Virus record (IMG/VR): IMGVR_UViG_3300037424_000495
Span: 1-64,000 of that record
Origin: a virus
Taxonomy: Duplodnaviria > Heunggongvirae > Uroviricota > Caudoviricetes
Reading direction: 5' to 3' (one strand)
DNA: 64,000 nt
Part shown: positions 21,922 to 24,128 of the stretch, piece after piece
Position numbering within the stretch: position 1 is the first letter of the stretch
Layout of the letters: every line of letters begins with the position of its first letter
Notes under the pieces: model-generated
Databases searched by the model: none
Seen by the model: only the letters and a program-made list of their open reading frames with translations
What the model was told of the DNA's origin: nothing
Translations under genes and position numbers: made by a program

Positions 21922-22449
21922 ATGAATCCAGATGCAGTGTTAGTTCAAGTACCGTCGATTGATTTTCGCACATTTCTTGGTTTGACGCATAAGGTCTTGG
22001 GCCGCAATTTAGCTGCGGCAGCCGATGCTTCACGCCGAGAACTATCCGATGCGGAGAAGTTTCTTGGTTGCCTTGCATCCATGCGTGATGTGAAGGCTGG
22101 AGTCGGACTACCTCCATATTTATTGTCGCACGTTTCGTTCAGTGCTTTTATTGGCGCGGATGATCGCGACATGCTTGACATTCTTCAATGCTGTGCAGGG
22201 ATGCCGTTTGTCACGGTGGAAACAAATGTTCGTGGTGTTCAGATAGCAGTTGTCACTGGCACATTAGCTCAATGGAAAGATGCAGTCGTGTCTGGTTGTC
22301 GCCGTGAAGTCGAGCCGTCGGTTCGATCTTGTTTTAACAAATTATACGGCTTGTTTATGGCTAACGGTTTGAATGTCTGGATTGATTTTCAGACACGTTC
22401 TACGTCTGATCAAACTTTTCTGCTGCTTGAAGACAAACGTGGGAAGTGA
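21922..22449 (+). CDS. hypothetical protein
   Basis: ORF in track; stop overlaps the MTase start. Confidence 0.45.
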   Translation: MNPDAVLVQVPSIDFRTFLGLTHKVLGRNLAAAADASRRELSDAEKFLGCLASMRDVKAGVGLPPYLLSHVSFSAFIGADDRDMLDILQCCAGMPFVTVETNVRGVQIAVVTGTLAQWKDAVVSGCRREVEPSVRSCFNKLYGLFMANGLNVWIDFQTRSTSDQTFLLLEDKRGK

Positions 22450-24128
22450 TTATGCAACCTTATTATCAAAGCGGTGATGTGACTTTATATTCTGGTGATT
22501 TACGAAATGTATTACCTGCGTTGCCGGAGTGTAGCGTAGATTGTGTTGTAACCGACCCTCCCTACGGCTATTCATTTATGGGTAAGGATTGGGATCACTC
22601 TGTACCGGGGTCGGAGTATTGGAAAGAAGTTTTAAGAGTTTGTAAACCTGGCGCGATATTGTTGGCCTTTGGTGGAACTCGAACATTTCATCGTTTGACT
22701 TGTGCAATTGAAGATGCTGGCTGGGAAATTCGAGATTGTTTGATGTGGTTATATGGTTCGGGTTTCCCCAAGTCACTGGATATTAGCAAAGCCATTGATA
22801 AGGCCGCAGGTGCAAAGCGTGAAGTAGTTGGCAGTAAAGTAGGTTTGCCGGGTTATTCTTTGAAGCATCAAGGAGTCGGCGGTGTCTTGGCCGGCCGGGC
22901 AGATGGTTCGTTAGATAACAGTGAAGGTGAGTGTGCAATTACGGCCCCTGCCACTGATCTTGCGAAACAGTGGCAGGGTTACGGCACGGCTCTTAAGCCT
23001 TCCTGGGAACCCATCATTTTGGCAATGAAACCACTGGATGGCACCTTTGCTAACAATGCCGAGAAACATGGAGTGGCAGGTTTAAATATCGATGCTTGTC
23101 GAATTGCCACAGAAGAGAATTTAAACGGCGGTGCCTACGCTAAAAATGGCAGCAGGTCAAAACTTGTTGATGATAAGCGAGAAGGTGCGGCAGCCGGAAT
23201 GTTTCAGTCTGGAAAAACAGTTGGACAGGAATATGTACAACCGGTAGGACGTTTCCCAGCAAACTTATTGCTTGATGAAGAAGCCGCCAAACAACTTGAT
23301 GAGCAAACAGGCACACTTAAAAGTGGCACAAATTGTACACGAACAAAACCAGGGACAGGTTATCACGGCAACATTGGCAAGGCTGGAGATGTGCAAACTA
23401 CCTACGGCGACTCCGGCGGGGCGAGCAGATTTTATAGGGTTATTTCATGCCAAGACCAAAACCACCACTTAAACAGTGTGAATACTGTGGAAATTGGTTT
23501 CAACCCGCAAAGCGTAGCTGAAGATTCTGTTCTGGCTCTTGCAGTAATCTTGGAGCACCTCGGGGAAACAGTATCAAACGAACCGTTGGCACGTTTTATA
23601 GCCGACATGCGGAATGTATTAAGCGACAGCACAAAGACAGGTACGCAAACGATCCTGAGTTCAGGAGAAAAGTGCGTGCAAGAGTCGAAGCACATGCTCA
23701 TGGAACAGTTAAAACTGGACCCTGTGAATTGTGCGGAAATATCAAAGCAGACAAACATCATTACGACTATTCAAAACCTCTTGTGTACCAGTGGCTTTGT
23801 CGATCTTGTCATGTCAAGCAACATATTAAAGTCTTGGGCAGTTGGGGAAGTGGTTTGTCCCAAAAATAGATTTAAGTATTGTGCAAAAGCATCAAAGAAA
23901 GAACGTGGTGACGGCAACGATCATTCGACTGTTAAACCGCTTTCTCTTATGGAATATCTCTTAACACTTTGCTCAACACCGACGGGAGGTGTGGTATTAG
24001 ACCCCTTTGCGGGCAGCGGCACTACTCTTGTGGCCGCGAAGCGGCTGGGCCGCACATGTATCGGCGTGGAATTATTGGAACACAACTGTGAGATTGCAAA
24101 ATCACGAATCTCCCAAATACAACTCTAA
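22446..24128 (+). CDS. DNA N6-adenine/N4-cytosine methyltransferase (beta class) carrying a ~440-nt insertion
   Basis: Motif IV VVTDPPYG near the N-terminus; C-terminal HSTVKP...VVLDPFAGSGTTLVAAKRLGRTCIGVEL (motif I). The conserved SRFFY..CAKASKKER region is split (GASRFY ... KYCAKASKKERG) by an insert that encodes an HNH gene in another frame. Confidence 0.8.
   Translation: MIMQPYYQSGDVTLYSGDLRNVLPALPECSVDCVVTDPPYGYSFMGKDWDHSVPGSEYWKEVLRVCKPGAILLAFGGTRTFHRLTCAIEDAGWEIRDCLMWLYGSGFPKSLDISKAIDKAAGAKREVVGSKVGLPGYSLKHQGVGGVLAGRADGSLDNSEGECAITAPATDLAKQWQGYGTALKPSWEPIILAMKPLDGTFANNAEKHGVAGLNIDACRIATEENLNGGAYAKNGSRSKLVDDKREGAAAGMFQSGKTVGQEYVQPVGRFPANLLLDEEAAKQLDEQTGTLKSGTNCTRTKPGTGYHGNIGKAGDVQTTYGDSGGASRFYRVISCQDQNHHLNSVNTVEIGFNPQSVAEDSVLALAVILEHLGETVSNEPLARFIADMRNVLSDSTKTGTQTILSSGEKCVQESKHMLMEQLKLDPVNCAEISKQTNIITTIQNLLCTSGFVDLVMSSNILKSWAVGEVVCPKNRFKYCAKASKKERGDGNDHSTVKPLSLMEYLLTLCSTPTGGVVLDPFAGSGTTLVAAKRLGRTCIGVELLEHNCEIAKSRISQIQL
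23447..23869 (+). CDS. HNH homing-endonuclease-like gene nested in the +2 frame of the MTase ORF, interrupted by one in-frame TGA
   Basis: Translation MPRPKPPLKQCEYCGNWFQPAKRS-(TGA)-RFCSGSCS...CELCGNIKADKHHYDYSKPLVYQWLCRSCHVKQH has a canonical HNH motif plus an N-terminal zinc-finger; the MTase frame stays open across it. Confidence 0.5.

Follow-up and report, generated by a model that had tools for sequence, protein, structure and literature searches.

A probable HNH-type nuclease gene nested out of frame in an environmental phage DNA methylase gene that stays open across it

Introduction

The closest described system to the one reported here is the ShiLan domain, a hidden out-of-frame HNH gene in mycobacteriophage DNA methylases (ShiLan gp65 and relatives; Arsenault, Gosselin & Gogarten 2025, Genes 16:178, PMC11855218; earlier PMC9957025). 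It is a 202-amino-acid (aa) insertion that is stop-free in the host frame and whose third frame codes for a 195-aa HNH endonuclease, with a GTG start 18 nucleotides (nt) in and a TAA within the last four bases; a host segment of 11 aa is duplicated at the junction, there is no intron or intein and the distribution is disjunct (PMC11855218). No ribosome-binding site was found for this HNH, a leaderless mRNA being only suggested, and the host-frame product was predicted to form a helical hairpin on loops (PMC11855218). A second published case is Pacc40 gp60 (PMC11855218). The architecture was already published in 2025, so it is not new here. In this work, we analysed a 64,000-nt stretch of phage DNA (positions 1 to 64,000 of record IMGVR_UViG_3300037424_000495; hereafter the window), in which an HNH-like endonuclease open reading frame (ORF) is nested in the +2 frame of a DNA methylase gene. 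The reading that we favour, and consider probable, is that a free-standing HNH-type homing gene sits in the SRFFY motif of the methylase and that the host gene is translated through it.

The window element has much in common with the ShiLan domain. The host belongs to the same methylase family (about 50% identity to the mycobacteriophage methylases), the insert lies in a conserved motif and is stop-free in the host frame, no intron or intein was detected, and the HNH ORF occupies the third frame, starting about 18-20 nt into the insert and stopping in its last bases. A short host-sequence duplication at the junction, a disjunct distribution, a helical prediction for the host-frame product and an N-terminal FCS finger in the nuclease are also common to both. 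In contrast, the ShiLan/Pollywog site is WEP....KP (window aa ~187-196; in phage Pollywog gp67 the insert falls between SYEPVCVAVKP and AFEPIVVARKP), whereas the window site, between SRFF and Y (aa 327-330), is ~140 residues downstream. The ShiLan-type nuclease is a 195-aa protein with Pfam HNH_3 and two fingers, while that of the window has 140 aa, a CxxC-HH-DY-CxxCH core and no HNH_3 match, and the N-terminal FCS finger alone aligns between Pollywog and the window nuclease family. The hosts also differ, being uncultured environmental phages and a Phycisphaeraceae metagenome-assembled genome (MAG) here and actinophages for ShiLan. Many of the relatives studied here have a clear Shine-Dalgarno (SD) sequence or promoter, unlike the published domain, and the window copy, again unlike ShiLan, carries a nonsense mutation. 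The window element is not a ShiLan domain but another member of that class, located at a new site and built around a different core.

As in Pacc40 and the published intein cases, a homing-type nuclease occupies frame 3 of a host-frame-open insertion. The Pacc40 host, however, is a helicase-methylase fusion from another family, and the host-frame product of the intein cases is a splicing intein, whereas no splicing domain is present here. Friedrich et al., in 2007, reportedly described Aeromonas phage Aeh1, whose nrdA gene is split by the free-standing homing endonuclease gene mobE. That case resembles ours in that an intron-less, intein-less nuclease gene lies in a conserved coding region with host function kept, but its host gene consists of two separately translated pieces that reassemble, while here a single ORF would read through. 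In phage lambda, Rz1 is embedded out of frame inside Rz and is likewise a complete gene, which begins at a start of its own and lies on the same strand as the longer gene around it. Rz1 and Rz work together as partners, and Rz1 originated inside the outer gene, whereas the inner gene of the window would be a pre-existing mobile one and the outer reading its by-product.

Results and Discussion

The methylase gene is split at its SRFFY motif

The methylase ORF (22446-24128, plus strand, as are all features below) encodes 560 aa (PF01555, N6_N4_Mtase) and is open across the insert. It is a beta-class N6/N4 methylase, which Pfam PF01555 and PHROG 67 match on both sides of a central gap. The segment 5′ of the insert (22446-23432) runs from the DPPY catalytic motif (aa 37-40) to GGASRF (aa 323-329), and the segment 3′ of it (23874-24128) holds the KYCAKASKKER, HSTVKP and DPFAGSGTT S-adenosylmethionine (AdoMet)-binding motifs. 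We aligned the protein to its 120 best homologues, nearly all of ~400 aa, drawn from a 5.8-billion-protein collection. Insert-free homologues read YGDSGGASRFFYC.KA..KERG.GNDH.TVKP at the site, with a spacing between SRFF and HPT that is usually 19 aa and in some 22-23 aa, while the window reads GGASRFY, then 147 additional codons, then NRFKYCAKASKKERGDGNDHSTVKP; the site split by the insert is the SRFFY motif of the methylase. The original prediction, made from the window sequence, described a conserved methylase block split by an insert of ~440 nt with part of the motif duplicated at the junction. Both points held, since the insert measures 441 nt against the insert-free homologues (23433-23873; 147 methylase-frame codons) and the repeat AGATTT (Arg-Phe) stands at its two ends, upstream at 23427-23432 and downstream at 23868-23873, where it overlaps the TAG stop of the HNH ORF. 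Because the 6-nt copies are identical, the boundary that we set at this repeat is one of two equivalent choices. The GC content of the insert is 0.44, compared to 0.47 in the flanks.

The window methylase retains, on both sides of the insert, all the columns that are invariant across 88 homologues, among them K481, H493, K497, P498, D519, F521, G523, S524 and G525 in the 3′ part. Intact invariant residues beyond the insert are expected only if the downstream part is still translated. The prediction that neither a group I intron nor an intein is involved was also borne out. An Rfam search gave no relevant match at E-values (E) up to 10, and the HNH ORF fills 423 of the 441 nt, leaving no room for a ribozyme core; there was no Hint domain match, and the insert starts with Y/R-V-I and ends with ..K-N-R-F followed by K, with no Cys or Ser at its start and no His-Asn at its end.

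The Arg-Phe repeat was found on both sides of the insert in all the lineages printed (24). The Arg codons of its two copies, compared as a test for target-site duplication, were identical in 12 of these 24 lineages, a comparison too constrained by codon bias and by the TAG overlap to be informative. In two loci (L031 and L053), the upstream junction duplication is longer (SAARFFYCA... / ...SRFNYCAK), which suggests an original duplication of at least 18 nt, resembling the 11-aa duplication reported for the ShiLan domain. Another methylase (P0059, 478 aa) carries at the same site a 74-aa tandem duplication of its own sequence with SRFF...SRFF bounds, which suggests that duplications or faulty repair occur readily there.

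The insert carries a probable His-Me/HNH-like nuclease ORF

The nested ORF (23447-23869) comprises 140 codons from an ATG start, 14 nt past the upstream Arg-Phe repeat, to a TAG stop (23867-23869) that shares 2 nt with the downstream Arg codon. Its translation reads MPRPKPPLKQCEYCGNWFQPAKRS, an in-frame stop, RFCSGSC...CELCGN..KADKHHYDYSKPL..WLCRSCHVKQH...SQK and the terminal stop. The N-terminus forms an FCS-type zinc finger, CEYCG...RFCSGSC (C11..C14....RFCS..C32; 23477-23542). The core, CELCGN..ADKHHYDYSKPL..WLCRSCHVKQH (23723-23824), contains CxxC (93-96), HH (104-105) xDY and W116xC118xxCH122xxxH126 and is predicted to adopt a beta-beta-alpha fold. The prediction had placed a complete HNH gene of ~140 aa, with a finger and a core, at 23428-23869 in the +2 frame of the open methylase ORF, coordinates that proved right to within a few bases.

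The profile searches proposed with that prediction gave a divided answer. PHROG 2340 ('endonuclease') matched the HNH ORF with E = 8e-8, while Pfam returned no significant HNH match for the window protein, only weak NinG and zf-FCS matches. PF01844 matched 21 of 59 family members, with a best E of 0.008, below the gathering threshold, and a PDB sequence-profile search found the FCS finger and a weak Cascade-HNH match only. The N-terminal finger aligned to that of the ShiLan-type HNH of Pollywog with an hhalign probability of 92%. Across the 59 sequences, C93, H104, H105, D107, Y108, W116, C118, H122 and H126 were invariant and C96 was conserved in at least 90%. In GenBank phages, the relatives (at most 36% identity across most of the protein) stand as genes of their own, with the annotation endonuclease or endonuclease VII. 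The product of the nested ORF is probably a His-Me/HNH-like nuclease, judging from these matches and residues. It is 47-76% identical to about 68 nested relatives, and no second nuclease copy or trans-acting paralogue was found elsewhere in the window.

The methylase frame is conserved as open across the insert

Relatives were found by DNA-level scans with the HNH alignment (tblastn), which are blind to the host frame, and came from viral contigs, one Phycisphaeraceae MAG and the best 80 of 150 metagenome stretches. Nearly all of the resulting 66 non-redundant loci were recovered by HNH similarity alone. The number of open frames to be expected was estimated by codon resampling, in which the HNH protein was held fixed and its codons were redrawn from the usage of the locus itself. 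The methylase frame was open in 66 out of 66 loci, compared to 7.6 expected, and the third frame in none of the 66. For the window alone, with codons drawn from window usage, the probability of an open methylase frame was 0.009. None of the 80 metagenome loci had a stop across the match in the frame lying one base downstream from that of the HNH, while the third frame held 1-26 stops; [SA]RFF was found upstream wherever sequence exists, and RFxY..K / HPT.KP downstream. The viral and MAG loci likewise had an open host frame and never an open third frame, and three insert-bearing methylases from the protein search (L016-L018) showed the same nested architecture with the host frame open and the third frame closed.

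The nested same-frame architecture was present in all the relatives examined. A word-indexed protein search with the HNH returned a single match (P0001), since the nested ORF is passed over by gene callers. This protein lies on a GC-rich contig of 920 bp, in which the methylase is interrupted at an identical position, the HNH has the same frame relation to its host and no stop breaks the methylase frame. Openness was maintained over HNH divergence down to 47% identity. The open methylase frame is therefore conserved and not due to chance, and the comparison with resampled codons indicates that the host frame is kept open by selection, which argues that the methylase is translated through the element. 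The simulation also accounts for the host always reading the nuclease gene in one frame, since this is the only alternative frame that is realistically stop-free.

Empty alleles, a younger insert and remnants suggest mobility and decay

The insert was absent at the site in nearly all of the 120 best methylase homologues. When it was removed in silico, the best matches of the window methylase were insert-free alleles, two with 69.5% and 67.5% identity and a dozen or more with about 65%, and the nearest insert-bearing methylase, L016, came behind them with 64.4%. Between the window and L016, the difference at 4-fold sites was 0.31 in the insert and 0.66 in the flanks, indicating that the insert is younger than its flanks. 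HNH identity exceeded methylase identity in 94% of 1027 pairs, the two being almost uncorrelated (r = 0.18), and the GC content of the insert was lower than that of the host. The claim that a homing gene had inserted so that the methylase stays translatable gains support from the conserved open frame, the majority of empty alleles and the younger insert.

Decay was apparent as well. Two methylases (P0006 and P0018) carry only 27-30 in-frame residues at the site, SRFFKVLPCHDQ...LPRFKY, namely SRFFKVLQCAEPDN..GYLPRFKY at ~1940-2020 of L019 (P0006) and SRFFKVLPCHDQSPT..DPLPRFKY at ~970-1060 of L020 (P0018). In both, the insert persists at its two ends and the nuclease between them is gone. Of 68 distinct HNH sequences, 67 had no internal stop. 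Two of the 80 metagenome relatives have a damaged nuclease: in L101 (1501-1909) the reading frame shifts some 45 codons in, and a search for the methylase motif downstream found none, while L055 (1501-1917) has a stop about 5 codons ahead of the usual nuclease end. The pattern, as read from these alleles, is that of an element that repeatedly invades empty alleles and sometimes decays, each step being filtered by the need of the host for its methylase.

Pollywog, at the site of the window insert, reads SRFFPVFKYQAKA, with four extra residues compared to SRFFY..KA (L103, MK359343.1, gp67, locus 601-2484). These residues may be the footprint of a lost insert of the window type. A free-standing HNH gene, gp66 (248-604), adjoins the start of the Pollywog methylase.

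A proposed homing gene that the host may translate through

We propose that an HNH gene became lodged in the SRFFY motif in the -1 (+2) frame, without an intron or intein. The host gene would survive because the insert, whose length is divisible by three, has no stop in the methylase frame. Ribosomes would then read the methylase straight across the nuclease gene, adding ~147 little-constrained residues between the catalytic and the AdoMet-binding parts, and a start of its own, shortly after the insert begins, would serve to produce the nuclease independently. Presumably, it cuts insert-free alleles at the conserved SRFFY-coding sequence and repair copies the element in, while selection for a working methylase would purge variants that gain a host-frame stop. 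In the window, the nuclease would have been freshly knocked out by a CGA-to-TGA change invisible to the methylase, the first step of the usual decay of homing elements.

Several points weigh against this proposal. The joint probability of the open frames is overstated, as the lineages share ancestry, and the excess of HNH identity could partly reflect different rates rather than transfer. No clear SD and nothing resembling a promoter precede the HNH of the window copy, and its TGA could stem from faulty assembly or be polymorphic in the population. Translation through the insert, activity of the insert-bearing methylase, the activity and target of the nuclease and the use of the promoters described below are inferred.

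The nuclease frame is under selection and has candidate expression signals

We then compared the constraint on the two overlapping frames. A comparison of 2016 pairs gave differences of 0.33, 0.29 and 0.58 for HNH codon positions 1, 2 and 3, a normal wobble pattern showing that the HNH frame is under selection. The fastest-changing sites are accordingly the second codon positions of the host frame, and saturation at 4-fold sites was 0.62 in the HNH, compared to 0.65 in the methylase flanks. The host-frame reading of the insert, which includes the peptide LALAVILEHLGETVSNEPLAR, matched no family in Pfam, and in GC-rich lineages it is of low complexity, rich in Ser, Thr, Pro and Ala. The nearly saturated HNH synonymous sites and the low complexity indicate that the host-frame peptide is barely constrained beyond the absence of stops, in agreement with the initial impression that this translation looked like filler. 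AlphaFold modelled five helices at aa 355-465 of the window methylase (window 23508-23840), with a predicted local distance difference test score (pLDDT) of 63-89 over aa ~351-440 and below 50 past about aa 450. The linkers beside the helical block, which hold both Arg-Phe copies, also had a pLDDT below 50. The alignment over the helical region contained four sequences only, and we gave the prediction little weight.

Potential expression signals were scored in the 15-90 nt that separate the junction from the HNH start and compared to control positions. An SD-like motif was found in 29 of 66 loci (13% of control positions) and a TAnnnT box 5-8 nt 5′ of the start in 26 (2%); 55 of the 66 loci had one or the other, compared to 15% of control positions. 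The full arrangement TTGnnn-N16-18-TAnnnT-N5-8-ATG was present in 10 of the 66 loci and at 0.4% of controls. These sigma-70-like loci were L036, L037, L051, L052, L057, L065, L067, L068, L071 and L083, as exemplified by TTGCTT-N17-TATAAT-N6-ATG in L036; other lineages had a strong AGGAGG-type SD instead. The promoter-type arrangement would place the transcription start at the ATG and yield a leaderless mRNA. A fusion of the methylase N-terminus to the HNH by a -1 frameshift was also considered; it is ruled out in the window by a TAG in the HNH frame four codons before the ATG, and is countered in the relatives by upstream stops at varying distances.

A bolder possibility joins these observations. 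Out-of-frame, host-open insertion would be a general and long-lived third way beside introns and inteins, and the host-frame peptide a selected helical module, that is, true dual coding. If so, three rules would follow: the host always reads HNH codon positions 2-3-1; the nuclease is expressed from an SD of its own or from a promoter that yields a leaderless transcript; and at least three separate sites in one methylase family are used (two found here and the published ShiLan site). We regard this joint reading as doubtful, with a small chance of being right.

The in-frame TGA of the window copy most likely reflects recent inactivation

The single TGA noted after codon 24 of the HNH ORF is codon 25 (23519-23521) and is the sole internal stop. 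Where the window has TGA AGA TTC TGT TCT, three relatives (L016, L017 and L034) have CGA AGA TTC TGT TCT, and this column holds Arg in 65 of 68 sequences and a stop in one. The C-to-T change falls on the third base of a methylase-frame Ala codon (GCC/GCT) and is synonymous there. Elsewhere in the window, TGA terminates 13 of 53 large ORFs, several of them with GTGA/ATGA overlaps into the next gene. This usage rules out a global recoding of TGA, which had already been judged unlikely. As TGA is an ordinary stop in this genome and Arg is near-invariant at the site, the nuclease appears inactivated rather than recoded, and the TGA is most likely a CGA-to-TGA transition that recently knocked it out. 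An exact look-up of the window methylase protein, aimed at a second assembly in which to check the TGA, found none on record.

It had been suggested instead that the HNH is made by readthrough of the TGA, by recoding or from an internal start, and the recent inactivating transition explains the data better. A functional window HNH would be compatible with the TGA being the only lesion, since the remaining invariant nuclease residues are all intact, whether the stop is read through or recoded (as Trp, Gly or selenocysteine) or a shorter nuclease starts at GTG 23672, which AGGAGA-N3-GTG (23663-23674) precedes. This AGGAGA, however, merely codes for the conserved Arg-Arg of F-R-R-K-V, and the 65-aa product would be devoid of the zinc finger. 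TGA followed by A is not known as a leaky readthrough context, and a stop present in one of 68 family members does not mark a conserved recoding site. Given also the ordinary use of TGA in the window, we consider a functional window nuclease unlikely.

Other explanations for the open insert

About 97% of the nested HNH copies have remained intact, an unusual share for a parasite that does nothing but decay, and this could point to a co-adapted two-in-one module. Nuclease and methylase would together form a compact addiction or restriction-modification-like unit, or else selection would maintain the host-frame peptide as a folded domain with a modifying effect on the methylase. The five predicted helices between low-confidence linkers fit the latter version, and a shuffled DNA-binding module was an idea raised for the ShiLan domain (PMC11855218). 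However, most close methylases work without an insert, the insert and host phylogenies are decoupled, and the helix prediction is based on four aligned sequences. HNH synonymous sites nearly as saturated as the flanks, substitutions concentrated on the second codon position of the host and a low-complexity peptide in GC-rich lineages also argue against such a domain, and we find a co-adapted module very unlikely.

Removal of the insert from the product, by an unrecognised self-splicing RNA, an atypical intein or ribosomal bypass between Arg-Phe codons, would draw on the direct repeat conserved in all lineages, on the sequence ...GGASRF-KYCAKAS... restored by joining its copies, which is near the insert-free SRFFYC.KAS, and on the T4 gene 60 bypass, which is linked to a mobile HNH cassette. 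This is scarcely credible, as splicing or skipping gives no reason for a multiple-of-three, stop-free insert in 66 of 66 loci, the decayed remnants are in frame too, the searches for ribozyme and intein features were negative, no stop follows the would-be take-off codon (the upstream Arg-Phe) and the gaps of 345-552 nt are ten times any known bypass (about 50 nt for the T4 gene 60 type).

Further insertion sites and genomic surroundings

Beyond the few mycobacteriophages for which it was published, the hidden-HNH arrangement is widespread among phages of the environment, being carried by at least 150 metagenomic loci. Within the same methylase family it occupies two additional sites, whose nuclease cores differ from each other, and it is accompanied by candidate expression signals (SD or leaderless promoter) that had eluded the published study. 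Annotation systematically overlooks nuclease genes nested in this way because gene callers report only the long methylase ORF.

The third site carries an insert of ~141 aa, 11 codons downstream of the window site, after KERN.GCEK (L021, 3011-3436; L022, 2981-3406; P0010). Its nuclease matches Pfam HNH_3 with E = 2.5e-16 and lies in the same +2 frame, with the methylase frame stop-free. The HNH_3 core is 37% identical to that of the ShiLan-type HNH of Pollywog.

With regard to the surroundings, a Megablast search of the methylase gene against GenBank phages gave no match. The GTG start of the window methylase overlaps the TGA stop of the preceding 175-aa ORF (GTGA; 22446-22449). The gene order, consisting of a ParB-like gene, a 245-aa ORF, the 175-aa ORF, the methylase and a protein of ~655-680 aa, is common to the window and the related loci (L016-L022), indicating that they belong to one phage group.

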